This document shows positions 4,255 to 30,710 of a stretch of 32,000 bases of DNA, in pieces. Under the pieces are notes generated by a model. The model ran no database searches, was not told the origin of the DNA, and saw only the letters and a program-made list of their open reading frames with translations. The stretch spans positions 690,001-722,000 of the forward strand of contig CALSTM010000002.1 in the NCBI GenBank assembly GCA_943789275.1, read 5' to 3'. The position numbers and the translations under genes were made by a program. How positions within the stretch are numbered: position 1 is the stretch's first letter; each line of letters starts with the position of its first letter. Origin of the DNA: Candidatus Poseidoniaceae archaeon (GTDB taxonomy: Archaea; Thermoplasmatota; Poseidoniia; Poseidoniales; Poseidoniaceae).

Positions 4255-4333
4255 TTGGTGATTGAAATTACCCCCAAAAACCGCTGTTTTTGTGGTTCTT
4301 AGTGGCGGCACATTCAAGGGTGCTTGGGTAAGC

Positions 4334-5473
4334 ATGACGCCTATGCGACACTTGATTGACAGAGTATTGGAACTCACCGAATCAGAAATGGCAACGCCAG
4401 CAACCGTTTCCCCACCAATGGGTGAAGGAAGTGAAATCGAACTGAAAGCGCTGCTTGAATCACTCCAACCACGCATCCGTGTATACGGGGTTGGTGGAGC
4501 AGGGTGCAATGCTATTGGACGATTGCATGGCGAAGGGTTGTTTGAAAACTCGTACGTTACAGGTTACGCAATCAACACCGATGCTCAAGCACTTCTGATG
4601 TCACCAATCGATGAAAAAGTATTGATTGGACGAACGGCACGTGGAAGAGGCGCTGGCGGAGACCCGACGAAAGGCGAGGCTGCAGCTCTAGAATCTGAGT
4701 TGGCTTTACGCCGAATCACCAACGACACTCAATTGGCCATCATCACTGCAGGCATGGGTGGCGGATCTGGAACAGGTGCAGCAGGACAGATTGCTCGACT
4801 TGCTAAGCAACAAGGAGCAATGACCATTGCCGTTGTCACCTACCCGTTCCAATCTGAAGGCGCTCTGCGTAAACAAAATGCAGAGTGGGGACTTGAACGT
4901 CTGCGCGAGCATTGCGATACGATTCTGGTCATTCCAAACGAAAGGCTTCTTGAAATCGAAGGCGTCAAAGATCTACCAATCACCAGCGCCTTCCGAGTCG
5001 GAGATGAACTTCTTGTCCGTTCAATTACCGGTGTTGCAGAATTACTTACCATTGATGGAATGGTAAATCTCGATTTCGAGGATCTTCGGTCCGTCATCAA
5101 TTTCGGCAGTGGTGTAGCCATGATTGGACTTGGTTCTGCCTCTGGTCCTGGGCGTGCTGAAGCGGCAACTATGGAAGCGCTTCATTCACCGTTGCTCGAC
5201 ATTGACGCAAGCGATGCAAGAGGGGCTCTTATCAACGTCGTTGGAGGTGCAAGTCTTACCCTTGGTGAAGCCGAACAATGTGCGAAAATCATCAAAGACA
5301 AAATCTCCCCTCACGCACAAATAATCTGGGGTGCCGCAGTCAAGGACGAACTTGAAGATGAACTACGCGTCATGCTCGTACTCACTGGGGTCAAGAGTGA
5401 ACAAATACACGGAGCGAGTGAAAACAGACAGTTGCGAGCCCTCCGTAATCAACAAATTGAATTTGTCAACTGA
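4334..5473 (+). CDS. ftsZ: cell division GTPase FtsZ
   Basis: IRVYGVGGAGCNAIGRL, NTDAQAL, GRGAGGDPTKG, AGMGGGSGTGAAGQIARLAK, VVTYPFQSEG, ILVIPNERLL. The track start at 4262 is TTG, only 8 nt after the radA stop. The first in-frame ATG at 4334 (MTPMRHLIDRVLE...) gives a typical archaeal FtsZ N-terminus. Confidence 0.95.
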   Translation: MTPMRHLIDRVLELTESEMATPATVSPPMGEGSEIELKALLESLQPRIRVYGVGGAGCNAIGRLHGEGLFENSYVTGYAINTDAQALLMSPIDEKVLIGRTARGRGAGGDPTKGEAAALESELALRRITNDTQLAIITAGMGGGSGTGAAGQIARLAKQQGAMTIAVVTYPFQSEGALRKQNAEWGLERLREHCDTILVIPNERLLEIEGVKDLPITSAFRVGDELLVRSITGVAELLTIDGMVNLDFEDLRSVINFGSGVAMIGLGSASGPGRAEAATMEALHSPLLDIDASDARGALINVVGGASLTLGEAEQCAKIIKDKISPHAQIIWGAAVKDELEDELRVMLVLTGVKSEQIHGASENRQLRALRNQQIEFVN

Positions 5474-7332: not shown

Positions 7333-8580
7333 ATGTGGGACGGATTGATTGACATGACAGGAACCCCGGTAACAATGATGGATGGGAAACTCAACATCCC
7401 GAACGACCCAATTATCCACTACATCGAAGGAGATGGAATTGGTATTGATATTACACCCGTCATGATGAAGGTCGTGGATGCTGCGGTTTCAAAATCGTAC
7501 AACGGTGAAAAAAACATCGTTTGGTCTGAGGTTCTTGCTGGCGAGAAAGCATTCAATGCAACGGGCGAATGGTTGCCACAAGCAACACTCGATGCAATGC
7601 GGGACGGCTTAGTTTCCATCAAAGGCCCCCTCACGACCCCTGTCGGTGGAGGCATTCGTTCTCTGAATGTCGCCCTTCGCCAAAAGCTCGACCTTTACGC
7701 ATGCGTACGCCCAGTACGATGGTACGATGGCACCCCCTCCCCTGTCAAATCACCCGGAGATGTTGACATGATCATTTTCCGAGAAAACAGCGAAGACGTA
7801 TACGCCGGAATCGAATGGGAAGCCGGCAGTGATGGCGTCAAGAAACTCATCGACTTTTTACAAAACGAGATGGGTGTTGACAAAATCCGATTCCCGAACA
7901 CCTCTGGAATTGGAATCAAGCCCATTTCACAGGAAGGAACTGCTCGAATTGTTCGGGCTGCATTCCAGTACGCCATTGACAACGATAAAGAAAGCGTTAC
8001 ACTGGTTCACAAAGGCAACATCATGAAATTCACTGAAGGTGGATTCCGAGATTGGGGCTATTCTCTAGCAAAGGAAGAATTCGGTGCGGTTGAACTCGAC
8101 GGTGGCCCATGGTGTACTTTTGAGAATCCAAATACCGGAAAAACAATCCTCGTAAAGGACGTCATCGCCGATGCCATGCTCCAGCAAATTATTACTCGTC
8201 CTGCCGAGTACTCGGTTCTAACAACCATGAACTTGAATGGAGATTACATCTCTGATGCACTGGCTGCACAAGTCGGTGGAATTGGAATCGCTCCAGGTGC
8301 TAACATCAACTACGATACGGGAATTTCAATCTTCGAAGCAACCCACGGAACCGCTCCAAAGTACACAGGTCAAGACAAAGTGAATCCTGGCTCACTCATT
8401 CTCTCTGCAGAAATGATGCTGCGACACATGGGATGGGGCCAAGCCGCTGACCTCATCGTCAAGGGAATGGAAGGAGCAATATCTGCGAAAACTGTTACCT
8501 ACGACTTTGAACGTTTGATGGATGATGCAACACTTCTCTCATGCAGCGCCTTTGGCGATGCTATGATTTCACACATGTGA
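7333..8580 (+). CDS. icd: NADP-dependent isocitrate dehydrogenase (prokaryotic homodimeric type)
   Basis: Long stretches match the E. coli Icd sequence as I recall it: [173 protein letters not shown]. An alternative ATG lies at 7354. Confidence 0.97.
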
Positions 8581-8583
8581 GGC

Positions 8584-11500
8584 TCACTTGAGCCAAGCAT
8601 TGAGCGAACGACTGTTCTTCGCAATTCCAAAGCCAAATTGCTCTTCAAAGGCTCTGGCAACCAACGTAAAGTCTCCGTCACGGGTTGCCACCAAAACCGT
8701 ACCAAGGTCTTGCAGTGATTGAGTTGCAAGTTGTGAAGCAATCTGCATGATCGTGCGGTCGGGTGCTTCAGGGTAGACATCAAGTCCGTCGAGAACCGTA
8801 CGAACAGGTTCTCCTCGTGTTCGCTTCATTGCGGTAATCTCTTCGTAAATCTCAGTTGATTCTCGAAGGAACTGTTCGATAGCCTGCTTATTTTCGGATG
8901 ATTCAGCCTCTTTCTCCAAATCAAGGTTGAGAGGTCGCCAAGTGTTGTAATCATTGAGAACTTCTTCAACCAAAGAATTGATTGTCTTGGCGTTGAAAAT
9001 AGTGTCGAGAAGTTCCGGTGATACAAGAGAATCATCGAAGCGGCTTTTCAGGCCCTGGACGCCGGTGGCAATACCGCGTAATTCCTGTTGGACGACGCTT
9101 GGCAACCAGAGATGGAGTTTCTTATCCTTTGATTTACTCAATAAAATCTTGTGGAAACTACCTTGGCCACGAACATCAAGACTGACTTCACTCACCAAAT
9201 GCAATTTCTCAGCAATTCGGTCAACCAAGGCGTCAACCAATATGTTCGTGTCGACCAGAACCAATGGGGAGAGAGAAAGATTTCGGAGGTAGCGGCGTGA
9301 TGCATTTGGAATCTGTGACTTGTTCAGGGAGAACAGCGATTTCTCAGCTTGTTTTAGACTGCGGATTTCATTGTCGTTGAAATGTGGACTGTTTTGAGCG
9401 CGCTCAAGGAACATCAAACCGTCAACAGGTCGGACCTTGGCAGCCTCACTTGCAAGAGAGTAAACTTCGTCTGTGGACGGGGAGCCGCCTTGCATCAATT
9501 GATTGAAACGGATGTCAAACGTGTTCTTTTGACGGCGACGGTTCTTGTGGAGTGAATTGGTTGCAGCAGTTACACGGCCGCAGAACGGGTCGGTGGGGAG
9601 TGGTCGTGGGTGTTCCAACGGGTACGTTTTCAACATATCCAAATCGTCTTCTGCGTGATAAACTCGCATCACTTCGACCATTTCACCTTCTTCGTTTTCT
9701 TCGGACACCATTCGAGTGCGCTTGACGAAATCCTTGAGCAGTTTAGTGGCTGAATTGGTATCTTTGGACTTGGCAGTGTACGAAACGCGCAAATACAGTT
9801 GGAAACGTTGTGTAATCGCGCTCTTCAAAGCGGGTTGCGCATCGAGTAGTTCAACCGCTTCACGCCATTGTTCTGCAAACGCCAAGTGAATCAGTGCCTT
9901 GCGGTAAAGCGTGAGTGAGTGTTCGTAGTCAAAGTCCTCATGATCTCCTGCTTTTCTGTAATCTCGTGCAGCATTCAACTCCTCGTTACCTGATGCGTAA
10001 ACTGCCGCACGAGCAAGCGTATGCCAAGGTGAAAGGGCGTCGTTATGCTGGTACCAACGCACCAAGGAAGGAAGACCGATATCGTGCTCCAAAACCAAGT
10101 GACGTACACTGTGAATCATACCGGTTGGAATCGAAGGGTCGCTCAATAGAGTGTTGAGCGTGTCAATATTTTCTGAATCTGAGTTTCCATGTTGGAGCAT
10201 CAACCCCACGTAATTGAGGCGTAGTGTTGAGATGACGGCATTGAACAAAACTCGCTCCATCACCGTTAGGTCCGCTGAGGCAACGCTCTGCTCAAGATTC
10301 GAAAGGTGAGTGGATGAAGCAATTCCACTGCCACCATCACGCAATGCTTGCCGGATTGGCCCAAACGCACGCAGGCCTTGGCGGTCAAGTACCGTCGTAA
10401 GGCGTTCATCTTCGATGTTTTCTCCTTCAAACAGCATCAATAATGCTTCAGAAGTAGATGAAAAGGAATCTGGTGCATCGATGCTGTGGATTTCAGACAA
10501 CGCAGAACGGCGTGCAGTACGAACTTGCGACCACAATTCACCGTTACTTCCTGCGTCAAGAAGGTGAGAGACGAGGAGTGTTTCGTAAGGGTGAGACATG
10601 GGAATGAGGTCATCGGAAGTAATGATTTTAGCAAGGAGTGATAATTCCATGCTTTGAGTGAAAATGTCGATCAGTAAAGGCAGAACTGTTTCGTGTGCTT
10701 CACTCGATTCTGACTTGAGATTTTTGGCTGCAGCAGAACGAATATCCAGCGACAGTGAATCCATTTGGATGAGAGCAACCAAGGCACTGTCATCCAGCAC
10801 CGGAATCTGTTCCATCAACCAATCATCAAGGATGTCACTTGACAAATCAGCTAACAGTGGCGTGATTCGAGACAACTCAGTATGTTGGTCGAGTTTCAAA
10901 CTGGTGAGCAATTGAACGGTTTCCTCAGCCTTACCCTCTTTGTGCAGCGCATTAAGCCTCCACCACATGACCTTCTCGATCTGAGCAGAGTTCGTTGTCT
11001 TCTCACGGAGGAGTTCTAGACCTTCAGTCAATTGTTTTGAAGACAGTTTGGAAGCTTCGTCAGGAGCGTTCTGCCACGCCATCAGTTGACGGGCAGCTGC
11101 AAGCGAATGATTGCCTTTCGCTGCTTTCGACTTTTTCCAATCGGTGACATTTCCTTGACCAAGGGCATAGAAATCACTCAATTGTGATGCTAATTCCTCA
11201 TCCACAGACTTGAGTGTCTTCAAGGACTCTGATGGGTCTTGGCCTGAGGCAAGAGAAAGCAAAACGCTCAATGCAGAGGCTTGGTTTTTCATGTTCAACA
11301 GTACTTTTGCTGGTTGCACAGCGCGCCCTGCAGATAATTGTGAAACGACTGTTCGGAGAGCCACCTGGGATTCGGCATCTGTGATCGAAGGAGATATGGC
11401 TTCGATGGCCTTAATCAAGTCCTCAGAATTGGACGGATTGATGAAAGCAGACTCCAATTTAACCTTCTTTCCAGCCTTGGCCTTGGAAACTTTGGCTTTT

Positions 11501-11985
11501 GGAAAGGCAGCAAATTGCCCAAGGAGAGCCGTGCGTTGAGCCAAATCGTGCCAAACGGGATGAACTCCTTTTTCCAAACACGTTTCGCGGAGGGATGTTT
11601 CAGTTACCTCCCATTGTTCATCCCACTCTTCCTTGTTGAGGAGTTTGTGAACCATCAACACCGCGAGGCGGTATGCAGGTGAGTCGTCCGAAGGAACAAG
11701 CATTTCTTCGGCGGTTGGCAGCAAGTCCATCGGTCCTGTAGCCCCTCTTCCGCCGCGCCGGCTACGACCGCGGCCACCCATTGACCGGCGGCGGGGCGTC
11801 GAATCTGAATCCTCATCTGCAGCAGGAAGTTCTGTTTCAGCCAAAGCGAGAAGGAGGAGCGGGCGCCATGGCTTGTCGAGCAACTGCCAGTCAGGTATCT
11901 TCACAACAACAGCTTGTCGGCGGGTCTTGGTGATGTTCGTTTTGAACGCCGCTTCAAGGCAATTTGCGATGTATGTCTCTTGCAA
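8584..11985 (-). CDS. large (1,133 aa) RGG-box / helical-repeat protein with C-terminal PIN-domain ribonuclease
   Basis: The C-terminal ~240 aa show the PIN acidic tetrad in canonical contexts: LVLVDTNILVDAL, VVQQELRGI, APDRTIMQIASQLA, LVATRDGDFTLVA. Near the N-terminus is RRRSMGGRGRSRRGGRGATG. The middle ~800 aa are Leu/Ala/Ser-rich and look helical or TPR-like. The track start at 11985 is TTG and the first stop upstream is at 12010-12012, so the true start is uncertain. Confidence 0.85.
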   Translation of the reverse strand: MQETYIANCLEAAFKTNITKTRRQAVVVKIPDWQLLDKPWRPLLLLALAETELPAADEDSDSTPRRRSMGGRGRSRRGGRGATGPMDLLPTAEEMLVPSDDSPAYRLAVLMVHKLLNKEEWDEQWEVTETSLRETCLEKGVHPVWHDLAQRTALLGQFAAFPKAKVSKAKAGKKVKLESAFINPSNSEDLIKAIEAISPSITDAESQVALRTVVSQLSAGRAVQPAKVLLNMKNQASALSVLLSLASGQDPSESLKTLKSVDEELASQLSDFYALGQGNVTDWKKSKAAKGNHSLAAARQLMAWQNAPDEASKLSSKQLTEGLELLREKTTNSAQIEKVMWWRLNALHKEGKAEETVQLLTSLKLDQHTELSRITPLLADLSSDILDDWLMEQIPVLDDSALVALIQMDSLSLDIRSAAAKNLKSESSEAHETVLPLLIDIFTQSMELSLLAKIITSDDLIPMSHPYETLLVSHLLDAGSNGELWSQVRTARRSALSEIHSIDAPDSFSSTSEALLMLFEGENIEDERLTTVLDRQGLRAFGPIRQALRDGGSGIASSTHLSNLEQSVASADLTVMERVLFNAVISTLRLNYVGLMLQHGNSDSENIDTLNTLLSDPSIPTGMIHSVRHLVLEHDIGLPSLVRWYQHNDALSPWHTLARAAVYASGNEELNAARDYRKAGDHEDFDYEHSLTLYRKALIHLAFAEQWREAVELLDAQPALKSAITQRFQLYLRVSYTAKSKDTNSATKLLKDFVKRTRMVSEENEEGEMVEVMRVYHAEDDLDMLKTYPLEHPRPLPTDPFCGRVTAATNSLHKNRRRQKNTFDIRFNQLMQGGSPSTDEVYSLASEAAKVRPVDGLMFLERAQNSPHFNDNEIRSLKQAEKSLFSLNKSQIPNASRRYLRNLSLSPLVLVDTNILVDALVDRIAEKLHLVSEVSLDVRGQGSFHKILLSKSKDKKLHLWLPSVVQQELRGIATGVQGLKSRFDDSLVSPELLDTIFNAKTINSLVEEVLNDYNTWRPLNLDLEKEAESSENKQAIEQFLRESTEIYEEITAMKRTRGEPVRTVLDGLDVYPEAPDRTIMQIASQLATQSLQDLGTVLVATRDGDFTLVARAFEEQFGFGIAKNSRSLNAWLK

Positions 11986-13684: not shown

Positions 13685-14095
13685 ATGGAGACCTCGTGTG
13701 GCGTTGTATTGGTCAACTATGGGACCGTCCTTCTGCTCCAATACCCCCAAGGTCACTGGGATTTTCCAAAGGGCCACGTCGAAGATGCCGACGAGGATCA
13801 TCATGCTACTGCACGCCGGGAACTCGAGGAGGAAACTGGAATTTCTGAAATTGATTTTATTCCAGATTTCGTTGAACGAACCGAGTATTCATACCGTCAT
13901 AAGGGGAAAAAGCGAACAAAACAAGTGTATTGGTATTTGGCTGAAACAGAACGCATCAGCGTATCTCTATCGCATGAACATCGCGGCCACATGTGGTTGG
14001 ATTGGGAACAAGCAATCGACCAATTATCGCACAAAGAAACAATGCGCGTACTCGAAAATGCTCACCAGCACATGGTATCAATTGGAAAAGAATGA
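13685..14095 (+). CDS. NUDIX hydrolase (Ap4A-hydrolase-like)
   Basis: Nudix box GHVEDADEDHHATARRELEEETGI (G-x5-E-x7-R-E-x2-E-E-x-G). The overall WDFPKGH...W...A pattern resembles small diadenosine-polyphosphate hydrolases. The track start at 13607 is GTG. The ATG at 13685 (METSCGVVLV...) gives the usual ~136 aa. Confidence 0.88.
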   Translation: METSCGVVLVNYGTVLLLQYPQGHWDFPKGHVEDADEDHHATARRELEEETGISEIDFIPDFVERTEYSYRHKGKKRTKQVYWYLAETERISVSLSHEHRGHMWLDWEQAIDQLSHKETMRVLENAHQHMVSIGKE

Positions 14096-17480: not shown

Positions 17481-18173
17481 ATGGGTCAAACCCCTACACT
17501 CCATATGCTCTACACATGTCCATTTTGTTGGAAGGTTCGAGGCCTCATCGAATACATCGATCTTGACGTGGAATACATCAGCGTAAACGGAATGAAAATC
17601 AAGAAGGAAGTCGATTTTGCTGGCGATTGGGGTAAAGTACCTGTTTTTACCGATGAAAACGGGCAATATCACACCGACTCCACTCCGTTGCTAAAGCACA
17701 TCGACTCCACCTACAACGGCGGGAAGTTAGCTGCTTTGGGCGATGCCTCCCGCCAACAGAAGTGGCTTGAATGGGCAGATGCAAAAATGTCTAAAGCCAC
17801 TATACCAATTCTCTATGGTAGTCTACGCTCAGCGCTCAAGACAACCGTTCGTATTTCCAAAATTGAAAAATTCGGATTCTTCTCCAAGCGCCTCTATGCG
17901 TGGGCTGGCTTCCCAATTATGTGGGGGATTATCGCTCGAAAGCGAGTGAAAAAGGACGGTCGAACGCCAAAGCAATTGTGGCATGACTTGCTTACAGAAT
18001 TCACCGATGAACACGGGTCAAAGTCCTACTTTGGCGGAGATGAGCCGGACCTTGTGGATTTTGCCACATACGGCTACATGCGTTCCATTTCCCCGTTCCC
18101 GCAATTCAGTTTGCTTGAAGATCACGCCAAAGGGATGGCGTGGTACAAGCGAATGGAAGCAAGTGTACAGTGA
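17481..18173 (+). CDS. glutaredoxin-2 / prostaglandin-E-synthase-2-like GST family protein (CPFC active site)
   Basis: N-terminal thioredoxin-fold segment LHMLYTCPFCWKVRGLIEYIDLDVEYISVN...KVPVFTDENGQYHTDSTPLLKHID, followed by a helical GST-C-like half. The track start at 17451 is TTG, overlapping the upstream stop. The ATG at 17481 is in frame. Confidence 0.8.
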   Translation: MGQTPTLHMLYTCPFCWKVRGLIEYIDLDVEYISVNGMKIKKEVDFAGDWGKVPVFTDENGQYHTDSTPLLKHIDSTYNGGKLAALGDASRQQKWLEWADAKMSKATIPILYGSLRSALKTTVRISKIEKFGFFSKRLYAWAGFPIMWGIIARKRVKKDGRTPKQLWHDLLTEFTDEHGSKSYFGGDEPDLVDFATYGYMRSISPFPQFSLLEDHAKGMAWYKRMEASVQ

Positions 18174-18179
18174 AGTGGT

Positions 18180-19025
18180 ATGATGAATGTTCAATATCGA
18201 GGTATTGAATTTCAAAAAATCTCAACCGGTAGCGTCTATCTTGGTACAGAAAAAGGTGGCTGGATCTATGCCAGTCAACGGCCGCGCCATGAAGTGAAGT
18301 GTCCTGATTTTTACATCATGAAGTCGGTGCTGTCTCAACAGCAAATTCTCGACATTCTCCAATCCAAGGATGCGGACATTAAACTGGACGGTGCAAAAAT
18401 TCACGATATATGCCAACGGCTCACGGATGGCGTTGCTGATGAAGAATTCCTTGCTTCTTCCGCCCATGGATGGGAAGTTCGAAGTCCGAGCGAAGGTGAA
18501 TGGCGACACGCTCATGAAACCATAGGGCTCGAATTGAATCCAAAGAAAATCGAAATTCTAGCGGACGGGGTTGCAGACAACTATCGTGGAGCAATGATGG
18601 ATGGTCGGCCACGGCCTTTTCACGGTCTTGGACCGATGGCTAAACACCGTACTGCCATCGAAACCCACCCTACTCGAGAGGGAGTGACTGCTCTTTCAAG
18701 TGCCCCGATGGACCGGCCACTGGATGGGGTCGTGACTCGACTCGTCATCTCCCCTATCCGCTCGGAAAATGGTAAAATCGTGCCGTTAAACGCTGATTTT
18801 TTTTCCAATATTCGCGGGGAGGTTTTTTGGACATTCCTGCTAGGAGTCGTCCCTTCTTTCGTCATCCCTATCGCACGAGGAATGGGGAGTTATGCTGTGA
18901 ATGGATGGGCAAACCTGCTGTTTGGAGGTTTATGTGCGGGGTTTGTAACCGGTGCACTTTGGAGGCCTCGCCGCCCTACTCTGCAGTACAATGATGTCGA
19001 AGAATCAAACCTCATCCGGAGATGA
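18180..19025 (+). CDS. membrane-anchored protein with a possible divergent FGE-sulfatase (SUMF1-like) domain
   Basis: FQKISTGSVYLGTE...QRPRHEVKCPDFYIMKSVLS and GWEVRSPSEGEWRHAH recall the FGE-sulfatase fold motifs (P.H.V....F.I.k..VT; RLPTEAEWEYA). The C-terminus has two TM helices (VFWTFLLGVVPSFVIPIA, WANLLFGGLCAGFVTGALW). The family call is low confidence. The last 21 nt overlap the convergent maeB. Confidence 0.7.
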   Translation: MMNVQYRGIEFQKISTGSVYLGTEKGGWIYASQRPRHEVKCPDFYIMKSVLSQQQILDILQSKDADIKLDGAKIHDICQRLTDGVADEEFLASSAHGWEVRSPSEGEWRHAHETIGLELNPKKIEILADGVADNYRGAMMDGRPRPFHGLGPMAKHRTAIETHPTREGVTALSSAPMDRPLDGVVTRLVISPIRSENGKIVPLNADFFSNIRGEVFWTFLLGVVPSFVIPIARGMGSYAVNGWANLLFGGLCAGFVTGALWRPRRPTLQYNDVEESNLIRR

Positions 19026-21505: not shown

Positions 21506-21537
21506 TTATTTTTCACACGACGAAGGGGCGCGTTCAA
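21506..21537 (+). promoter_or_regulatory. candidate promoter for the giant gene (TATA-like TTATTTTT at 21506-21513; second A/T element TTCAAATA at 21530-21537)
   Basis: These are the only A/T-rich boxes within 60 nt of the ATG at 21564. CGAAGG (21552-21557) sits 6 nt upstream of the ATG as an SD-like element. Positional inference only. Confidence 0.25.
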
Positions 21538-21563
21538 ATACCCCAAAACAACGAAGGTTTCTC

Positions 21564-24500
21564 ATGAGGAGCGACTCGAACGTAAAGCCCCCCCAGCGCG
21601 ACACTCGCAGAGCGCTGCTGCTGGTCATTCTCATGCTGCTCTCTTCTGCAGCTCCAATCCTTACTTTTTCTGGTGTTTCAGCCCATGAGTCAGCGGTTGA
21701 CACAATATGGCCTCAAGAAGGCAGTAACGACACCGGATGGGTGCAATTGGATGCGACAGGCGCATCACCCGGCAGCCCTAACCAAGCCACTGCGGATTGG
21801 ACGCTTGAGTTCGCTCCAGGTGCCGAGTTGTCGAATGTATCGTTCCAAGTGCGAGTCGATGGGAGCGACGGCCTCATGATCGAAGAACCGATGCTTATTG
21901 CCAGTGACATAGGCGTCAACCTGTTGGACTGGAGAGGCCTTGGAATGCTTGGTTCTCAAGACAGTTTTACGGGCCCGAACCCTTACTCAGGCCGCCTAAG
22001 TCCGAACAGTGACTCAGGTGCAACTTGGACATTGCCTTCGGATGCTGAAATTACCGAACTGGTCATCGAAGCACTCGCACCGGTCGACCCGGTCGTGGCT
22101 CTGGCCCCGCTTGAACTGCGCATAACGGCGACTGCAATCCATCCACAAGATGGTCGAATGTACCTCGCAATCGACAATTCGCTCATGACTTTGGATTATT
22201 CGAATGACCCGATTGTAATTGATATTATGGAAATGGATTCAGATATTCGAGATCTCGTCATTGATACATCCAATAATCTACTTCACATTCTCTCTGGAGA
22301 AGACGGGTTCTCCGCATATTCGCTCGACGATACAAGTGAGCAGAGCGGTCTAACAGCTCCGACCTTCTGGCCCGAGTCTTCATCTCAACCGAGTTATGAT
22401 GTGTTTTACCTTGCTTCAAATGGATTCGTTTACGCTGCTTATGGAAACGGAATTGCACAATGGGACGGACTAAATTGGACTTTCCCAATGACGAAACTTA
22501 CCTCAGGGAAAGCGCTGGACATCGCTGAAGTAAACGGCGTACTCTATGTTTCATTTGATGATGAAGGAGTTGTTCGGTGGGACCTCAATTCCGGTTCCGC
22601 CCTTTCGACATGGTCGACAGCGAACTCTCTTCACTCTGACGAAATTGTTGAGATGATGGTATCCGGAAACCAAATCCTATTCGCCTCTCCTGACAGCGGA
22701 TTAGCTCGTTACGATTGGAATTCTGGATTTTGGCTCTCGACGTGGACCGATGGAAATTGGCTTGCCAGTAATTCAATCAACGGCATGGCTCGCTCTGGGG
22801 TGGACTTGTTCATTCTTAGCGGTGACACACTGCACATTTACGACACAACAAGCGGCGTGTTCACCAGTTCACAAGTGATTTCAAATTTCGGCCTAACCGG
22901 TGATGGAAGTGACTTGATTGTTTGGCCAGCGATCGGGGATAGGGCGCCGACATCCGAACTGCTGTTGCTTGGAAACGGCTTCGGTTCATTTGCCGAACTG
23001 ACTCCAAATCCTGCCCTTACTCAAACTGGAACACTCCTGATTGGTAGCGGGCCCACTTCATCAAGCATGCAAGACGCTACAGAACTCAACGGCGTGGTCT
23101 TCGTTGCTGCCGATGATTACATGAATCGATTTGATAGCCAAGCCTCTCGCTGGCTCCAACCAATTTACCTTGGAACAACGGTCAACCAGTTGATGAACGA
23201 TGGCTCTCATGTCTTCATCGCTTCGGAAAGTGGGCTTCACAAGATGCACAGCAACGGTAGCTTACTCCAAACATGGAACTCAGCAAATACCGATTTGAAT
23301 CAAGATGAAGTGATTCGTGTCGATTCAGACGGAACACACGCCGTTGCAATCTCGGGCGAAGGTGAAATGCTGGTGGTGGAGTTGGACGGCGCCAGCCTTC
23401 CGGCAGTCGAACAATACGATTATGCGGCCGTAGACCTCGCTCTTTTCAGCAATACGGTTCACCTTGCGACAGATGACAGCGGCGTCCTTAGATACGAACT
23501 CACCAATGAGTCGTGGCTAACTCCGTGGATTTCAACCGGAGTAAACGGGGCAGATAATGTCCCTATATCCGTTATTGGCGACATACTTTACTTCGGAATC
23601 CCCGGATACGGCGTGGCTCGTAAAGATATGTCTACGGGCGAATTGATGATTCCGCTCACTGCGGCTAGCAATAACCCTGGCCAAGGTTCCGCAACAAGTT
23701 CACTCCCTAGTGACAACATTTACGCTCTTGAATCCGACGGTTTCAACCTCTACATTGGAACGCAACAAGGTGCGAGAAAATGGGACGGAAACCAAATGAC
23801 GACGTTCGGTCAAGGTTCTTCTTGGGACACACGCCCTCAACAGTTTTTCGACTTCGTAGCCGTTTCCAGCATCTCAGGCGGTAGCCTCTATGCAGCGACC
23901 AATATCGGCGTATGTAAGTACAGCATTGCTACATTGGGAATCAACGAGTGCCTCAACGTATACGACGGAATGCCTAATTGGGCCACCTACTCGGTAGAAG
24001 CTGATTCCTACGGCTATATCTACGGCGGTACGAATTCGGGTGTTGGCATCATTTCGGCCTCTCCATACGATGTTATCGGAACTTGGGAGGCTGGAGAACA
24101 AACCCAGAACGCCCCAGTTGCAGTGGTTGGAGATGTGGCTTTCATCGCTCTAGACGGTATCGGAATCGCCCGTTATGACATTCCTAACAACGCTTGGCTC
24201 ACTTTGTGGACCGATGACAATGTATTGGATAACGGGAACGAGGATGCAACTGCACTCTCCCCCGATATTAATCCGAATTTGATATGGGTCGGGGGCGCTG
24301 ATGGCTTCCAGCTACTCAATGCAACAACCGGAAACGAAGTGTATGATATCGAGAAATCAAGCAGTTTGTTTGCTGGAAATGGCGACCCTCTCGACATGAT
24401 TCTGAAAGGAGATATCATGTATTACCATGATGGAACCAGCAGTGATAACCTGTACCGGTTTAATGCTCAGAATTTCACTGCACTTTCTGCTTTGGATGCT

Positions 24501-27500
24501 GGTGCACAAATTGGCCAGAACAACGGCGATGTCAATGGAATGAGCCTGGTTGGTGACATGATTATGATCAGCATCGCCTCACAGAACTGGTGGCAAGTTG
24601 ATGGCTCTGGCGGTATTGCTCAATGGGACACGATCAACAACACATGGGGCGACAACATACTCCCAATCGGGCAAGTTGACCGGGTTACTGCCTACCAATC
24701 CTCGAACGGAAACATGTGGGTTGCGTGGGGCGAAAACTCGCTCCAGTACATGGCAGCAAACGGAACAGTACTCGGCGAATGGGACGATGATGACTTCAAC
24801 TTCCCAATCCGGGAAATCCTCGAATACAACGGAGAAGTTCTTTTCGCAACTGAAGACGGGGTTGCCCGATACAACCAGACAAGTGACCAGTGGCTCTCAT
24901 TGTGGGAGGAAGGAAACGGACTCCCGAACAATGCGGGCTCCCGAATCTATGAACTGTGGACCGACGGCACAAATCTTGTTGTCGGTGGCGGTGATGTCAG
25001 TGGATTTGGACAATTCCAAGGCGGTTCTGTTTCCCACTGGAACGGAAATACATGGTCTCAGTACTCCATGGGAAGCGGTGGAACGCCCGGTGGATATCCT
25101 ATATCTATGGCGGAATGCGGCGGACTGCTCCACATTGGAATTTATGCCAACAACGGCGGCGTTGCCCGTCTGGATATGGCGAATGACACCTTTGTAGGTT
25201 CGTTCACACGAACAGACTTAGGGGAAGGTGAAGTTTCTGGAGTTGCTTGTGACGCTACAGACACGCTTTACGTTGCCTTCTACGAAGATGATGCTGACAT
25301 CATGAAGTATGGGTATTCTTCTGGAACTTGGCTGACCCCTATTACGACGGCAACAAATAACCTTCCAAGCGATCGAGTTTGGTGGGATGCAATGGACTAC
25401 GCCAATGGACAACTTGTTCTTGGCCATGGGCTAGGGACAAACGGCGACAACATCATCGGTGGCGGTTACACAACCATTGCTACATCAGGTAACTCAAATG
25501 CCCAAGCCAGCGTCAACGGAGCAGGTTCATCAGTCACCTCCTTCCAACGAGTCAACAACCAGTGGCTCATCGGTCAAGCAGGCAGCTCTTCTGGATTCAG
25601 TAAGGTGCTTACCATTAGTCCACTTGGCCAGAATACCATTGCGTCACTTCCGGGACTGGCCAGTGGTCAAGTCACCACAATGACCGGCAACAGTACTCAC
25701 CTGTGGGTAACCACTGCAGGAACAATCGCAACCTCAACCGGCTTTGGGCAACCCAGCGGCGCCGGACTCCTCCAAGGTGAACGTCAGTCAGACGGTTCGA
25801 TCCTCTGGCAAGATGGATGGATAATGGCTGCAAACAGCAAAGCCCAAGACGCTGAACTGATAGGTACGGATTTGTACATTTCTACATCTCCAACCGGCCT
25901 GTACAAACTCGATACTTTGACCGGAGCAGTTACACGACTCAGCGGAGGTTTGCACAACAATCTCGATGGAATGGTTCGTGATGGAACAACCCTTGTTCTT
26001 GGATTGATGGGGAGCGGCGGTTCCGCTCCTGGTGTTCAACTCTATGACATCCAAACGGGCTACGGTAACGGAAAACTCATCGGCGGCCTTCCTTCAAACG
26101 CAGTGAATAACTTCGCTGCAACTACAGATGTGCTTTACATTGCCACCAACGGCGGTGTAGGGCGATGGGATTATGCTGCTGCTGATTGGTTAAACCCACT
26201 CACCGCTGCAGACGGCCTTCCAACAAACCTCGTCGAAGATGTGCTGGTCGAGGGGAACTATCTGTGGATGGCTACGCGAGCCGGACTTGCTAGAATGGAT
26301 CTTACAACGAACAACACGATTGTTTACACTTCAGTTTCTGGGCTGATGGGGACTTCGACAATGTCGTTGACCTCTGCCGTGAATACCGTCACCAACAGCG
26401 ACGGAACTGTGTTCAGCGAGACCACATTGTTCATCGGTCACGATGGAGCTGGTAACGAACGACCTGCTGTAACGACCATCGGATTGACCTCAGGTGACAT
26501 CATAGGGCACGAATTTGACCAACTGCCTTCAAACAATGTCGATGCTCTAGCGAGCGATTATTGGGGCATACATGTAGCGACTGACATTGGACCTATGGTT
26601 CACTGGAACAGCAGTTCAAACTTCTTCGAAAGCGGAATTTCCTCCTTCCAAATCTTTGGCTGGCCAGTTGAAAAGATGGTAAGCGACGGCGAGCATGTTT
26701 TGGTCTTTGGTGGAAGCGGTGTGTCCATAATCGAAGCCCGAACAAACACTCACCCGAACATCAAGATGATTTCCATGCCCGAACTCACTGGAGGCACCCT
26801 TTCATCCGATTACATCTGGCTAACAACCGATGCCAATGGAATGTTTGGATACCAAAACAATGCCCAATACACAGAGGTTGACCGGATTTCAGTTCGATAC
26901 GCTAACCCTCTGAACGTCGGATTCAATCTTGCGTCTCAAGACATTTCAGACCTGACCAACCCCGGCATGAGCATCACGCTGGCCGACCTCGATTCTACGG
27001 TCTCCTTAGATTCAACTCAAGGCGTTGTTGGGACGAATGGAATCCTGTTCCAAACCGTCCCGCTTGCGTTTACCTCGCCAGTGAACAACGCTGCAACATG
27101 GGCCCAGTCAAAGAGTCTCAAATACAACGCAACCATAGAACTCAACAACAATCCCGACTTTGAAACAAGCCTCCAGCTCGCTGTTCAAAATGGAGTCATT
27201 GTGAATGGAACACAGTTCTTACAACTGTCGTTGTATTCTCCATCAAACGGTTCAATGCAGGTTCGCCTCATCTACGACTATGTCCGCACCGAAACTCCGA
27301 TTACACTGACAGGTTTGATCGACCGTCCGGACGATGGAGGTGGCGCATTACTTGCAAACTGGTCGCTCGTCCATGACGACAATTTTGCCCGCTATCTCGT
27401 CTATGTCAATGAAGGGCCCTTCGAGAGCGAAACTGGACTCGCACTTACGGCTGACGACTTAGCAGGTCGAACCATAGACAAAGCCATCTCACTCCACAGT

Positions 27501-29912
27501 AGACTCTCGAACGAAGTAACTACGGCCAACGGCCAACCTCTCGTTGATGGTGAAGAATACTATGCTGTAATCGTGGTCGAATACGATGATGGGCACCTCG
27601 GCACACCATCTCCAGTTTTGGGCCCAGCCTCTCCAAGCAACGAAATCCCACTCTCACCTGCATGGGCTATTGCAGGACCGCACGATGGTGGAGCAGACGG
27701 GGACTTAGAGATTGAATGGGCACGTTGTACATCCCTCGACCTTGCCAGCACCATAATTTACACATCAACAAACCCAATGACCGACCTCCTTGGACTGCCC
27801 GTAGAAGAAGAGATAATGAAAGAAGAAGGCAACATGACTGTCCTCTCACTGGACGCTGGACAACCGTACTGGCTTGGATTGACCTGCGTTGATGAATCAG
27901 GACAAGAAGATCTGATGAATCCTCTCATCATCGGGCCAGTCGTCCCAACCGGTGGCTTGAACGACAATACTGCTCCTCCAAAAATGGTCAACGTCGAGGC
28001 AATTGACACACCTGACGATGACGGCGGTCGAATCACAGTTTCATGGGACGCAAACACGGCAGAAGATTGTACATTCTACGCCATCTACATCCGTATGTCA
28101 ACTGGTAATTTTGATGGTGAATCGATACCATCAGCCTCGGTTGAAGGTGATGAATTCAGCCAAGCGAAAATCATTGATGATTGTGCGGAAACATCGACTA
28201 CGGTAACCAGTGTCGATGGTGTTGCACTCCAGGATGGTCAAGCGTACTACGTCGGCATCGTTGCCTACGATGACTGGCTAAACGCAAACCTCGTCGATGT
28301 CGAACTTGTTCAAGTCACCCCACTGCGTAACACCGCTGGAACCGGTTCGGTGCCAGACAGAGTTGGAACGGTGAATGCCTTTGACCATCCCGACGATGAC
28401 GGTACAGCCATTGACGTCATTTGGTCGATTTCTGATGCTGATGACTTCTCTCACTACATTGTTTGGGCTGCTGACAAACCCCTTGCTGACCTTTCAGTGG
28501 CATGGGCTGCCTTTGGCGATGATGCCACAAAGTGTGCCTGTTTGAAAATCAATAAACAATGGATTGATGAAGAGTACAACCCAATCGAACTCTCGATATC
28601 CACTGCTTTGTACGGCGGAGATTCAATCGTTGATGCTACACCTCAAATTATCAAACCTGGCGTAGAACTCTATGTTGTTGTCACCGTTCATGACCTTGCT
28701 GGAAATGTTTACCTCACCGAACTTCCACAAGCTACAGTGGTACCAATCGACAATTTGCAAGATGTTGTTGCGCCTGCGCCGCTTGATGCACTCGAACTGT
28801 ATGACCGTCCAAACGATGGCGGTGGCGCCCTTCTGCTCGACTTTGAACTCAGTAATGAGAGCGATGTCGCAAACTACGAAGTCTATGCCGCCACATGGTC
28901 GTTTGATGCGGTTGGCATGGGAAGTACGGGCCCTGCCACACCAGTTGCTGTTCTCTCACGATTACCAGAATTGCCACTCACCATCGAAGTGGTCGCCGGC
29001 GATACTCCGGTGATTGCTGGACAGGAAATTTGGGCCGCTGTTGTTGTCAGAGATACCGCTGGAAACGCACAAGAAATAAATCTCGTGAGTGTTTCTGCCC
29101 AATCGGTCGATGATGGCGTGGATGACCTTGGCGGGTACCTTGACGAGATTGAGGACATATCGCTCACATGGAACGATGAAAAGAATATCTTGGTTGAATG
29201 GACGCATTCTGCAGAATCAACAGTTCGTGGATATCGCATCTACATTTCAGACATTGATTTCGATACGATTGAAGATGCGGACTTCGTAGTTGAAGTGAAA
29301 GCATCGAACTCGTTCTTGATCACGCCCAGCAATTACCAACTCCTCAAGAATACTTCAGCATGGTATGTCGCAGTAACTCCGTTTGACGACCTGTTCGAAA
29401 GAGAGGAAGTGAACACGGTCATGCTCGACGTTTTCGGCAAAGACACACAAAACGGCGATGGTCAAGATTCAGCCAATGAAAATGACTTCTCCTCGCTTTT
29501 GACCACTCCAAACCTACTGGCGGCTGGTCTGCTGGCTGTTGCTCTTCTCTTGCTTGTAGCCATTGTTCGCTCACGAGGCGGACAAAAGAGCCGTAACCGC
29601 ACACTTGAGCTGCAAGAAGCAACATGGGGTATACAGAACGACGATTGGGATTCATTTGGCGCTCCAGTTGCTCCACCGCCAATGCCAACAGCACCTGCTG
29701 CGAGTGTTCGCCAAGGACAAGCGAACGATATCTATGCGGCCGCTCAAAGAATCGAAAACCAAGACCTCTATGGAAGACCTGCATACCAAACCTCACAACC
29801 CGTCATGCAACCTGCACAAAACAATGCATTGCTCAATGACCTTGCAGAGCCAAACGCCCCGCAACTGCCTCAAGCAAGCATTGATACCTCATTCTTGGAT
29901 GACCTACTTTGA
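21564..29912 (+). CDS. giant (2,782 aa) type-I membrane surface protein: signal peptide, multi-beta-propeller region, six FN3-like modules, TM helix, cytoplasmic P/Q-rich tail
   Basis: Uninterrupted 8,349-nt ORF. Signal-like RRALLLVILMLLSSAAPILTFSGVSA. More than 20 blade-like repeats, for example GLARYDWNSGFWLSTWT, GIARYDIPNNAWLTLWT, GVARYNQTSDQWLSLWE and GVGRWDYAAADWLNPLTAADGLPTN. Six FN3-like modules. TM LLAAGLLAVALLLLVAIV followed by RSRGGQKSRNR and a ~110-aa tail ending SFLDDLL. Confidence 0.93.
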   Translation: MRSDSNVKPPQRDTRRALLLVILMLLSSAAPILTFSGVSAHESAVDTIWPQEGSNDTGWVQLDATGASPGSPNQATADWTLEFAPGAELSNVSFQVRVDGSDGLMIEEPMLIASDIGVNLLDWRGLGMLGSQDSFTGPNPYSGRLSPNSDSGATWTLPSDAEITELVIEALAPVDPVVALAPLELRITATAIHPQDGRMYLAIDNSLMTLDYSNDPIVIDIMEMDSDIRDLVIDTSNNLLHILSGEDGFSAYSLDDTSEQSGLTAPTFWPESSSQPSYDVFYLASNGFVYAAYGNGIAQWDGLNWTFPMTKLTSGKALDIAEVNGVLYVSFDDEGVVRWDLNSGSALSTWSTANSLHSDEIVEMMVSGNQILFASPDSGLARYDWNSGFWLSTWTDGNWLASNSINGMARSGVDLFILSGDTLHIYDTTSGVFTSSQVISNFGLTGDGSDLIVWPAIGDRAPTSELLLLGNGFGSFAELTPNPALTQTGTLLIGSGPTSSSMQDATELNGVVFVAADDYMNRFDSQASRWLQPIYLGTTVNQLMNDGSHVFIASESGLHKMHSNGSLLQTWNSANTDLNQDEVIRVDSDGTHAVAISGEGEMLVVELDGASLPAVEQYDYAAVDLALFSNTVHLATDDSGVLRYELTNESWLTPWISTGVNGADNVPISVIGDILYFGIPGYGVARKDMSTGELMIPLTAASNNPGQGSATSSLPSDNIYALESDGFNLYIGTQQGARKWDGNQMTTFGQGSSWDTRPQQFFDFVAVSSISGGSLYAATNIGVCKYSIATLGINECLNVYDGMPNWATYSVEADSYGYIYGGTNSGVGIISASPYDVIGTWEAGEQTQNAPVAVVGDVAFIALDGIGIARYDIPNNAWLTLWTDDNVLDNGNEDATALSPDINPNLIWVGGADGFQLLNATTGNEVYDIEKSSSLFAGNGDPLDMILKGDIMYYHDGTSSDNLYRFNAQNFTALSALDAGAQIGQNNGDVNGMSLVGDMIMISIASQNWWQVDGSGGIAQWDTINNTWGDNILPIGQVDRVTAYQSSNGNMWVAWGENSLQYMAANGTVLGEWDDDDFNFPIREILEYNGEVLFATEDGVARYNQTSDQWLSLWEEGNGLPNNAGSRIYELWTDGTNLVVGGGDVSGFGQFQGGSVSHWNGNTWSQYSMGSGGTPGGYPISMAECGGLLHIGIYANNGGVARLDMANDTFVGSFTRTDLGEGEVSGVACDATDTLYVAFYEDDADIMKYGYSSGTWLTPITTATNNLPSDRVWWDAMDYANGQLVLGHGLGTNGDNIIGGGYTTIATSGNSNAQASVNGAGSSVTSFQRVNNQWLIGQAGSSSGFSKVLTISPLGQNTIASLPGLASGQVTTMTGNSTHLWVTTAGTIATSTGFGQPSGAGLLQGERQSDGSILWQDGWIMAANSKAQDAELIGTDLYISTSPTGLYKLDTLTGAVTRLSGGLHNNLDGMVRDGTTLVLGLMGSGGSAPGVQLYDIQTGYGNGKLIGGLPSNAVNNFAATTDVLYIATNGGVGRWDYAAADWLNPLTAADGLPTNLVEDVLVEGNYLWMATRAGLARMDLTTNNTIVYTSVSGLMGTSTMSLTSAVNTVTNSDGTVFSETTLFIGHDGAGNERPAVTTIGLTSGDIIGHEFDQLPSNNVDALASDYWGIHVATDIGPMVHWNSSSNFFESGISSFQIFGWPVEKMVSDGEHVLVFGGSGVSIIEARTNTHPNIKMISMPELTGGTLSSDYIWLTTDANGMFGYQNNAQYTEVDRISVRYANPLNVGFNLASQDISDLTNPGMSITLADLDSTVSLDSTQGVVGTNGILFQTVPLAFTSPVNNAATWAQSKSLKYNATIELNNNPDFETSLQLAVQNGVIVNGTQFLQLSLYSPSNGSMQVRLIYDYVRTETPITLTGLIDRPDDGGGALLANWSLVHDDNFARYLVYVNEGPFESETGLALTADDLAGRTIDKAISLHSRLSNEVTTANGQPLVDGEEYYAVIVVEYDDGHLGTPSPVLGPASPSNEIPLSPAWAIAGPHDGGADGDLEIEWARCTSLDLASTIIYTSTNPMTDLLGLPVEEEIMKEEGNMTVLSLDAGQPYWLGLTCVDESGQEDLMNPLIIGPVVPTGGLNDNTAPPKMVNVEAIDTPDDDGGRITVSWDANTAEDCTFYAIYIRMSTGNFDGESIPSASVEGDEFSQAKIIDDCAETSTTVTSVDGVALQDGQAYYVGIVAYDDWLNANLVDVELVQVTPLRNTAGTGSVPDRVGTVNAFDHPDDDGTAIDVIWSISDADDFSHYIVWAADKPLADLSVAWAAFGDDATKCACLKINKQWIDEEYNPIELSISTALYGGDSIVDATPQIIKPGVELYVVVTVHDLAGNVYLTELPQATVVPIDNLQDVVAPAPLDALELYDRPNDGGGALLLDFELSNESDVANYEVYAATWSFDAVGMGSTGPATPVAVLSRLPELPLTIEVVAGDTPVIAGQEIWAAVVVRDTAGNAQEINLVSVSAQSVDDGVDDLGGYLDEIEDISLTWNDEKNILVEWTHSAESTVRGYRIYISDIDFDTIEDADFVVEVKASNSFLITPSNYQLLKNTSAWYVAVTPFDDLFEREEVNTVMLDVFGKDTQNGDGQDSANENDFSSLLTTPNLLAAGLLAVALLLLVAIVRSRGGQKSRNRTLELQEATWGIQNDDWDSFGAPVAPPPMPTAPAASVRQGQANDIYAAAQRIENQDLYGRPAYQTSQPVMQPAQNNALLNDLAEPNAPQLPQASIDTSFLDDLL
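22150..26880 (+). repeat. protein-level repeat region: beta-propeller blade-like units (two-component-regulator-propeller-like) inside the giant ORF
   Basis: A recurring ~45-70-aa unit with G-[VLI]-x-[RK]-[YW]-[DNE] ... W[LI]..[WL] and often N.LPSN/D. Examples lie at about 22697-22750, 24158-24212, 24856-24910 and 26155-26300. The repeats are diverged at DNA level. Boundaries are approximate. Confidence 0.55.
27321..29430 (+). repeat. protein-level tandem array of six FN3-like modules (~110-140 aa each) inside the giant ORF
   Basis: Module starts: DRPDDGGGALLANWS (27321), GPHDGGADGDLEIEWA (27675), DTPDDDGGRITVSWD (28005), DHPDDDGTAIDVIWS (28383), DRPNDGGGALLLDFE (28803), EDISLTWNDEKNILVEWT (~29150). 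Each has a later aromatic Y-x-V/I-Y/W strand and a G-x-x-Y/W-hydrophobic4-x-D-x-x-G-N/x strand, for example GQAYYVGIVAYDDWLN and GQEIWAAVVVRDTAGN. Confidence 0.6.
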
Positions 29913-29921
29913 GGCGTGTCA

Positions 29922-30710
29922 ATGAGTCTGGATAGGTCGGCTGGCCCGCGCAGCGAGGTATTTACCACCGCTTTATGGGACGGAGAGTTCGCTCTTGCTG
30001 ATTGGCATCTCCATTTAGCAAGGCTGACAGAACATGCCAAACTACTGCGTATCGAATTACCTGAAAACATGCCTCAACAACTTGAAACGCTGCTTCAACA
30101 GGAGCGTTCCTTGAAAAAAACGACTCAATCCCATGAACCGAAGTTGTTGGTAAAAATCAAGTGCACACAAGATGGAGAGCTGAGCGTCGATTCTCGAAGT
30201 ATTGATTTCCGAAATGAGGAAGTTGATGCCATCACTGTAGAGGCTCCAAGATGGTCAAGTAAAGTAAACGGCACCAAGCATGGAGATTGGCAAGCGTATA
30301 TCGATGCTCGACACGATGCGGAAAAGAAAGGAGTCGATGTCGCCTTGCTGGTACACGACTACGCCATCGTCGATGCAGACCGGGCTTTGCCCGTTGTCCT
30401 CGATGAAGACGGTGTAGCATGGGTTGCTGCGCACAATGAAGGTGGAGTGGAAAGCATAACGTTTGAAATCCTGTCCCAACAACTGCAAAATGCCGGCATA
30501 CCGGTCCAACATGGAAGACTCAATGAAAGGCTGGTAGCACGTGCTTCCGAAATAATAACCCTTGGAAGTGGTACTGGGGCGTGCCGAGTTTTATCGCTTG
30601 ATGACGAATCGATTGGTGACGGCAATATGCTTTCATCGCTCTGCCAAACTCTTCTCGAAAACCACTATCAGAAAAACGAAACGTGGTCCGATGTGAGGTT
30701 GTTAAAATGA
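29922..30710 (+). CDS. pabC: aminodeoxychorismate lyase-like fold-type IV PLP enzyme (PabC-like)
   Basis: WHLHLARLTEHAKLLRIE (the H..RL..S motif region), candidate catalytic Lys in VNGTKHGDWQAYIDARHDAEKKGVDVALLV, and later ASEIITLGSGTGACRVLSLDD. An in-frame GTG at 29916 is an alternative start. The function is supported by a 4-bp ATGA overlap with pabB downstream. Confidence 0.75.
   Translation: MSLDRSAGPRSEVFTTALWDGEFALADWHLHLARLTEHAKLLRIELPENMPQQLETLLQQERSLKKTTQSHEPKLLVKIKCTQDGELSVDSRSIDFRNEEVDAITVEAPRWSSKVNGTKHGDWQAYIDARHDAEKKGVDVALLVHDYAIVDADRALPVVLDEDGVAWVAAHNEGGVESITFEILSQQLQNAGIPVQHGRLNERLVARASEIITLGSGTGACRVLSLDDESIGDGNMLSSLCQTLLENHYQKNETWSDVRLLK

Follow-up and report, generated by a model that had tools for sequence, protein, structure and literature searches.

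The hybrid two-component sensors of Bacteroides (BT4663, BT4673 and BT3049) have two tandem 7-bladed beta-propellers built from G-h-x-R-Y-D blades (h, hydrophobic), followed by an Ig/FN3-like domain, a membrane helix and an intracellular output module that combines a histidine kinase with receiver and AraC domains. The type IX secretion system (T9SS) includes PorZ (PDB 5m11), a surface protein of about 750 amino acids (aa) on the bacterial outer membrane, with two Reg_prop-type propellers and a T9SS C-terminal domain. Eukaryotic receptors of the LRP2/megalin, ROS1/Sevenless and SorLA type contain several propellers, one transmembrane (TM) helix and a tail with short linear motifs; fibronectin type III (FN3) domains are also present in ROS1. 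Archaeal S-layer glycoproteins, such as those encoded by Haloferax volcanii csg and Staphylothermus tetrabrachion, are specified by a lineage-wide gene and consist of a signal peptide, an acidic Ig-like ectodomain with sequons and a C-terminal membrane anchor. Here we describe a giant gene within a 32,000-nucleotide stretch of DNA (the window) from a Candidatus Poseidoniaceae archaeon. Its 2,782-aa product resembles both receptors and S-layer proteins and belongs to none of the families that we tested. We tentatively propose, with a probability of roughly 0.4, that this giant protein is a constitutive envelope protein of the order Poseidoniales (Marine Group II) and the best candidate for the main coat of these cells, as an S-layer-type or canopy glycoprotein.

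The giant gene is a single ATG-to-stop frame without internal stop codons, as an earlier reading of the sequence alone had noted, and its base composition equals that of the remaining window. A search of 5.8 billion proteins yielded 184 matches. The best 120 of these were all full length (2,739-2,831 aa), with 46-90% identity and 98-100% query coverage. Few matches carry names; those named by their source are labelled hypothetical, domain-containing or 'fibronectin type III domain-containing' and derive from Poseidoniaceae, Poseidonia or 'Euryarchaeota' metagenome-assembled genomes (MAGs). When one genome per GTDB species was scanned, relatives were found to be encoded in 311 genomes. All 80 loci that were kept belong to Poseidoniales or to unclassified marine archaeal MAGs, in agreement with the archaeal origin proposed from the letters alone, and each genome record contributed one locus; a second copy was not encountered. 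We also built a profile from the last 1,023 residues; among 1.84 billion representative sequences it matched about 16 clusters (50% level) of full-length proteins. Beyond these clusters the only matches were short fragments that aligned like pieces of the giant protein and unrelated giants sharing the FN3-like repeat type. Members of one distant cluster (P0139) are named Candidatus Thalassarchaeaceae, and a search with the P0139 protein identified relatives of 2,707-2,875 aa that aligned over 93-100% of their length with 27-33% identity to the Poseidoniaceae proteins. Thus, the family spans both families of Poseidoniales, with protein size kept within about 3% across the order. From these results we conclude that the giant protein is present in every Poseidoniales lineage examined. 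No viral relatives were detected in IMG/VR, and a PDB sequence search returned no relative of solved structure below an expect value (E) of 0.5.

The evolutionary behavior of the gene is that of a conserved housekeeping component. An alignment of 41 sequences was nearly gap-free, with conservation spread evenly along the protein. In comparison with the closest genome (L002), the nonsynonymous substitution rate (dN) of the giant gene was 0.070 and its ratio to the synonymous rate (dN/dS) about 0.05, which falls inside the range of 0.009-0.094 obtained for neighboring genes encoding cytoplasmic proteins; these ratios are rough because dS is near saturation. Values of dS for the giant gene were 1.28, 2.82 and 2.45 against L002, L004 and L008, respectively, lower than those of most neighbors in the same three genome pairs, many of which were saturated. 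This difference may be a weak hint of high expression. We found no tandem or direct DNA repeats in the gene, indicating that the repeated units of the protein described below are old and diverged. Together with the near absence of insertions and deletions, the lack of DNA-level repeats argues that this is not a typical variable adhesin: near-identical tandem repeats with strain-to-strain differences in length and copy number, as expected of a repeat-expanding adhesin, were not observed.

Several features suggest that the giant protein is exported and anchored as a type-I surface protein, with a predicted signal, one C-terminal membrane helix and a cytoplasmic tail. Topology was assigned from hydropathy and conservation. 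The N-terminus, previously described as signal-like, contains a basic stretch and a hydrophobic segment (aa 15-40) ahead of a conserved VSA-H sequence in which S39, A40 and H41 are invariant. An RR pair in the N-terminus of the window protein is not kept in its orthologs, so a Sec-type signal peptide appears likelier than a Tat signal, and Tat export was rejected. Beyond the N-terminus the protein has one strong hydrophobic segment, which confirms the single TM helix of the sequence-only reading. The helix is followed by the sequence RSRGGQKSRNR, and its position is conserved in all relatives checked. The 114 residues after the helix agree with the predicted tail of about 110 aa. Within Poseidoniaceae the tail retains conserved islands, namely a Trp-rich juxtamembrane segment (WELQEATWGI) next to the membrane, DIYAAAQRI and QPV-x-QP.

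Most of the ectodomain is a beta-propeller region. Using 71-sequence alignments, AlphaFold2 (AF2) models were obtained for aa 41-1240 and aa 1232-2431, with mean predicted local distance difference test (pLDDT) scores of 79.9 and 77.0, respectively. Both models were all-beta, with strands in groups of four that repeat every ~45 residues from aa ~187 to aa ~1770, and the blade motif G-h-x-R-Y/W-D recurs in this region. Counted from DSSP strands, the first model contains 23 blades and the second about 12, or ~35 in total. The simplest reading of the models, which we offer as a proposal, is that these blades would form five 7-bladed propellers. The earlier count of three propellers (about 21 blades) was therefore too low, whereas the propeller fold itself is supported by the strand periodicity and by Foldseek, which matched tandem-propeller proteins with E values of 1e-21 to 2e-23. 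The top fold matches were the eukaryotic receptors LRP2 (2e-23) and ROS1 (2e-22), and the sensor domains of BT4663 and BT4673 (1e-21) and of BT3049 were also among the best, the Bacteroides sensors as a group matching at 1e-21 and 2e-16; PorZ (3e-12), Sevenless, DDB1 and Utp21 were further matches. The entries with tandem 7-bladed propellers were 4a2l, 3ott, 3va6 and 3v9f (1e-21 to 1e-12).

Sequence profiles gave a fainter signal. No Pfam family reached its cut-off in the window protein, and an NCBIfam scan was without match. Reg_prop (PF07494) scored 18.8 bits against a cut-off of 20.4 and PorZ_N 12.9 bits against 27, while Y_Y_Y (PF07495) was unmatched at E<=1. When the scan was extended to 17 family members (the window protein and 16 orthologs), PorZ_N matched seven of them (best E 1e-9) and Reg_prop four at E<0.1, whereas Y_Y_Y matched none at E<=0.1. 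Precomputed Reg_prop and fn3 matches are common among more distant relatives. As the Pfam scores of the window protein lie below the cut-offs, the domain assignments rest on structure prediction and on relatives. The previously noted likeness to Reg_prop sensors thus holds for the fold and the type of blade, but with Y_Y_Y and all output domains unmatched the giant protein cannot be assigned to the hybrid-sensor family.

Six FN3-fold modules of 105-137 residues lie between the propellers and the membrane, as had been proposed. Modules M1, M3, M4 and M5 were interrelated at 93-98% probability in hhalign, and M2 and M6 joined through M3. M1-M4 were modeled as beta-sandwiches (AF2 pLDDT 78-90), and Foldseek matched them to four-domain FN3 fragments, FN3 1-4 of LAR and modules 7-10 of fibronectin (entries 6tpw, 3t1w and 1fnf; E 1e-13 to 5e-12); M5 and M6 were tied to the array by hhalign only. 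The Pfam fn3 model (PF00041) had no match in the window protein, but matched two of the 17 family members (best E 8e-7), and several relatives have a precomputed PF00041 match. The same FN3-like module, opening with D-x-P-x-D-x-G-G, occurs in 6-20 copies in the unrelated giants of 2,900-5,960 aa mentioned above (P0154, P0161, P0163, P0172 and others), of which P0154 is encoded by a bacterium of the Nitrospirota. This subtype has a wide distribution, and the Pfam fn3 model detects it poorly.

Two further segments have less certain structures. The stretch that follows the signal peptide (aa 41-186) contains several of the best-conserved parts of the protein (within aa 51-200); its pLDDT was only 30-60, and Pfam and PDB sequence searches gave no match. 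Either a new fold or a domain ordered only in an oligomer or with ligand may be present here. The linker domain between the propellers and the FN3 array, for which about 150 aa had been suggested, could be placed with a length of about 140 aa, but its fold was poorly predicted, and hhalign detected no relationship to the FN3 modules or to the N-terminal domain. The features are compiled in Table 1.

Table 1. Positions of the giant gene and of the segments of its product in the window
Feature	Residues	Window positions	Strand	Basis
Giant gene	2,782 codons + stop	21564..29912	+	ORF list and translation; full-length orthologs, 27-90% identity
Signal peptide (predicted)	1-40	21564..21683	+	Basic n-region, hydrophobic core and conserved V-S-A/H cleavage-type site; hydropathy
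N-terminal conserved domain	41-186 (146 aa)	21684..22121	+	0.63-0.68 identity in 40 orthologs over aa 51-200
Beta-propeller region	~187-1770	22122..26873	+	DSSP strands of two AF2 models; ~35 four-stranded blades of ~45 aa
Inter-domain linker domain	~1771-1911	26874..27296	+	pLDDT 50-66; few strands, one helix
Six FN3-fold modules	1912-2026, 2027-2132, 2136-2258, 2262-2398, 2402-2512, 2516-2630	27297..29453	+	hhalign, AF2, Foldseek; most open with D-x-P-x-D-D-G-G
TM helix (LLTTPNLLAAGLLAVALLLLVAIV)	~2645-2668	29496..29567	+	Hydropathy peak 2.77; followed by basic cluster (positive-inside rule)
Cytoplasmic tail	2669-2782 (114 aa)	29568..29909	+	41-sequence alignment; P/Q-rich
C-terminal peptide IDTSFLDDLL	2773-2782	29880..29909	+	Invariant in 17-, 41- and 71-sequence alignments

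The last ten residues are the only element of the tail kept across the family. Among 41 divergent relatives the tail varied from 60 to 159 residues in length and from P/Q-rich to highly acidic in composition, and yet the core D-x-S/G-F-L/I-D-D/E of the end peptide was retained in most of them. Versions found in relatives include VDTSFLDDLL, ADTSFIDDLL (Thalassarchaeaceae), LDMGFLDDLL and IDTSFIDEALED, with weaker variants such as DPFNLDDLI, LDSLIDDLL and GLVDDLF in some; a few extra residues follow the motif in one subgroup and at one additional locus. An acidic-hydrophobic peptide maintained at the end of a variable linker suggests a docking motif for a conserved partner, and hence the end peptide may point to a binding partner in the cytoplasm. 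This motif lends support to the proposal of the sequence-only reading that ectodomain and cytoplasm are wired together. We considered two other roles for the peptide. Mimicry of FtsZ was rejected, as the FtsZ encoded in the same window ends in RALRNQQIEFVN, unlike the tail of the giant protein. A general sorting tag was rejected as well, since the motif terminates no other open reading frame (ORF) across 1.9 Mb of flanking DNA from related loci. No neighboring gene conserved across the order was found as a candidate for the tail partner at the Poseidoniaceae loci, on the Thalassarchaeaceae contig or beside the gene in two distant relatives.

The report of the first Marine Group II genome by Iverson and coworkers in 2012 is said to mention large proteins with adhesion domains. 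In the main genomic and transcriptomic literature on Marine Group II (PMC6461757, PMC6336850, PMC6864105, PMC9723583 including its supplements, PMC11706807, PMC7291766 and PMC13096325) we found no description of the giant protein, consistent with the earlier suggestion of an undescribed system. The end-peptide string was likewise absent from the literature searched, and the conserved end of the tail is a feature newly recognized here.

Comparison with the described systems shows what is shared and what is not. Like the Bacteroides sensors, the giant protein has tandem propellers with related blades, followed by FN3-like domains and a membrane helix; it differs from them in its archaeal host, in its probable number of propellers (about five rather than two), in its profile scores and, above all, in its cytoplasmic part. 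Pfam and NCBIfam scans of the window protein, and the scan of the 17 family members, found no kinase, receiver, DNA-binding or enzyme domain, and specifically no HisKA, HATPase, receiver or AraC match, so that in place of an output module there is a low-complexity tail without recognizable domain. The absence of a kinase or DNA-binding output had been anticipated. PorZ is far smaller and lacks the FN3 array, the TM helix and the tail; conversely, the T9SS C-terminal domain had no match in the giant protein, which instead terminates in helix and tail. The overall plan of several propellers, one TM helix and a tail with a short motif is that of the eukaryotic multi-propeller receptors, from which the giant protein differs in lacking YWTD-type blades, EGF or LDL-A modules and a kinase domain. 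No sequence relationship to these receptors was detected, and the likeness is most likely one of design, reached by convergence. With archaeal S-layer glycoproteins the giant protein shares the predicted signal peptide, an acidic, sequon-bearing ectodomain with Ig-like modules, a C-terminal anchor and lineage-wide conservation, and both hydropathy and conservation fit a secreted protein held by its C-terminus. It is, however, two to three times larger and has a propeller head and a long tail with a conserved end peptide. Pfam and NCBIfam contained no matching S-layer family and no PGF-CTERM/archaeosortase signal was recognized, 114 residues following the TM helix.

Several observations favor a constitutive envelope protein. 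The order-wide presence, the constant size and the housekeeping-like constraint argue in this direction, as does the topology shared with archaeal S-layer glycoproteins. The frame that is intact in most loci and the lack of DNA repeats also count in its favor, and the low synonymous divergence is a weak hint. The same holds for the absence of enzymatic and signaling domains and for the composition of the protein, which is very acidic (350 D+E versus 97 K+R) and has eight ectodomain N-x-S/T sequons that are kept in at least 82% of orthologs and may be glycosylated. We also count the order-wide tail motif for an envelope protein that would be coupled across the membrane. In the arrangement that we envisage, the giant protein would be exported via Sec and anchored by its C-terminal helix. 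The six FN3 modules would form a membrane-proximal stalk, perhaps some tens of nanometers long judging from the typical size of an FN3 domain, and this stalk would carry a head of about five propellers with the conserved N-terminal domain at its tip. The head would be the outermost face of the cell, in contact with neighboring subunits or with ligands. On the inner side, the flexible tail would present IDTSFLDDLL to a cytoplasmic partner, and through this contact the inside of the cell could be linked to the position or state of the envelope protein.

A number of observations weigh against this interpretation. Sequons are not enriched (22 observed versus 28 expected), and glycosylation-site enrichment was rejected despite the eight conserved sites. 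Hints of abundance are indirect and conflicting, for the effective number of codons is an ordinary 54.3, comparable to neighboring genes, against a dS below that of most neighbors; strong codon bias was therefore rejected. The start of the downstream pabC-like gene lies only 4-10 nt after the stop codon, which leaves no space for a terminator and would be an uncommon arrangement for a monocistronic S-layer gene with very high expression. The lack of an S-layer family match counts here as well, and a long cytoplasmic tail bearing a conserved motif is, to our knowledge, absent from the characterized S-layer proteins of archaea. Finally, the closest solved folds are those of ligand-binding sensors and receptors. 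We regard as unlikely a more specific proposal, in which the giant protein is the S-layer protein of Marine Group II and its end peptide attaches to a protein of the cytoskeleton, of division or of sorting, thereby coupling the lattice to the interior. We know of no archaeal S-layer that is connected to the cytoplasm across the membrane in this way.

The fold matches raise the possibility that the protein is instead a ligand-binding receptor or adhesin, whose propeller head would recognize polymers such as glycans on phytoplankton or particles, much as the tandem propellers of the Bacteroides hybrid sensors bind oligosaccharides, and either hold the cell to its substrate or signal through the membrane helix to the tail peptide and its partner. 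The best matches include the Bacteroides sensor domains and PorZ, relatives carry Reg_prop and PorZ_N profile matches, and the order of propellers, FN3 domains, TM helix and tail is shared with LRP2, ROS1 and Sevenless. A conserved end motif implies an intracellular partner in this case too, and published accounts attribute to Poseidoniales the breakdown of polymeric organic matter and traits for adhesion (PMC6461757, PMC6336850). On the other hand, resemblance to propellers is generic, DDB1 and Utp21 scoring nearly as well, and neither an output domain of any kind nor a conserved neighbor that could serve as partner was identified, the synteny differing between the two families. Constant size, the absence of repeat expansion and housekeeping-like selection are atypical of adhesins. 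We therefore consider a receptor or adhesin, the main rival of the envelope reading, possible but doubtful. The sequence-only reading had preferred it over an S-layer-type subunit, and this preference is not backed by our results: a gene in every lineage, of near-constant length, without DNA repeats and under enzyme-like purifying selection is no less compatible with a constitutive structural component of the envelope than with an adhesin.

The tail could also define the function in another way, with the giant protein acting as a spacer or tether to an outer layer, or as a landmark protein sorted or retained by its end peptide, for example at the division plane. Retention of the end peptide alone on a linker of variable length would suit such a role, as would the Trp-rich juxtamembrane segment. 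However, we saw no sign of a second layer, and the comparison with FtsZ and the absence of the motif from the ends of other ORFs in the flanking DNA speak against it, which makes a role of this kind improbable. It is barely conceivable that the frame is a chance ORF, a mis-assembly or a decaying gene. Of 59 related loci containing the gene in full, three are interrupted: L005 has one frameshift (around 18112-18226, inside the P/Q-rich tail region), L020 has two (around 8311-8330 and 13697-13704) and L048 has a 324-nt run of N (18143-18466). The other 56 are uninterrupted, so these defects look like artifacts of assembly or masking, and orthologs broken into fragments, which would have pointed to decay, were not the rule. 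The intact loci, hundreds of full-length relatives, purifying selection and confident structure predictions led us to reject a non-functional ORF. We thus return to the constitutive envelope protein as the reading that we favor.

The genomic surroundings were as had been described, with a maeB-type malic enzyme gene upstream on the - strand and, downstream, genes for a class-IV aminotransferase (pabC-like) and a chorismate-binding enzyme (pabB-like). This synteny, whose conservation had been suggested as a check, holds within Poseidoniaceae, but on the Thalassarchaeaceae contig the neighbors are fatty-acid oxidation genes instead, and in two other distant relatives only maeB is retained beside the giant gene. 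Being limited to one family, the arrangement carries no functional message, and a functional operon with pabCB or maeB was rejected. The pabC-like gene starts at GTG 29916 or ATG 29922 (the junction spans 29910-29925), and pabB overlaps pabC by 4 nt. Since the gap after the giant gene is too short for a terminator, pabCB must be read through from the giant gene or be transcribed from a promoter inside its 3' end. Upstream, a TTCAAATA box is present in the window sequence at 21533-21540, 24-31 nt 5' of the ATG; if this is the TATA box, the mRNA of the giant gene would be leaderless or nearly so. On the contig of the distant relative P0136 (L082, 1-967, +), a second very large gene, with a 1,923-aa product that runs off the locus, precedes the giant gene at a distance of about 9 kb on its upstream side.

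Elsewhere the window consists of ordinary housekeeping DNA, with genes for RadA, FtsZ, isocitrate/isopropylmalate dehydrogenase, OsmC, a SPOUT methyltransferase, a GST-like protein and a PduO-type adenosyltransferase. FtsZ (4262-5473, +) begins 8 nt after RadA (3217-4254, +) and is listed with a TTG start and ~70 residues ahead of the tubulin domain. An ORF of 310 aa at 2119-3051 (+) has a weak PKD-domain match (22.5 bits versus a cut-off of 23.5) and may encode a small surface protein. The 1,133-aa product of an ORF at 8584-11985 (-) is apparently cytoplasmic and gave no match in Pfam and NCBIfam scans; its C-terminal part is kept at the edges of related Poseidoniaceae loci with 38-93% identity.

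Marine Group II archaea are abundant and uncultured, and are one of the dominant archaeal groups of the ocean. For Poseidoniales a gene of 8.3 kb is a sizeable investment, and its product is built for the cell surface. The giant protein is a leading candidate for the coat or main contact surface of these cells, and as such is relevant to metaproteomics, cryo-tomography, antibody work and studies of virus receptors, as well as to the encounters of the cells with particles and phytoplankton. Its cytoplasmic end peptide offers a ten-residue handle toward an intracellular partner.

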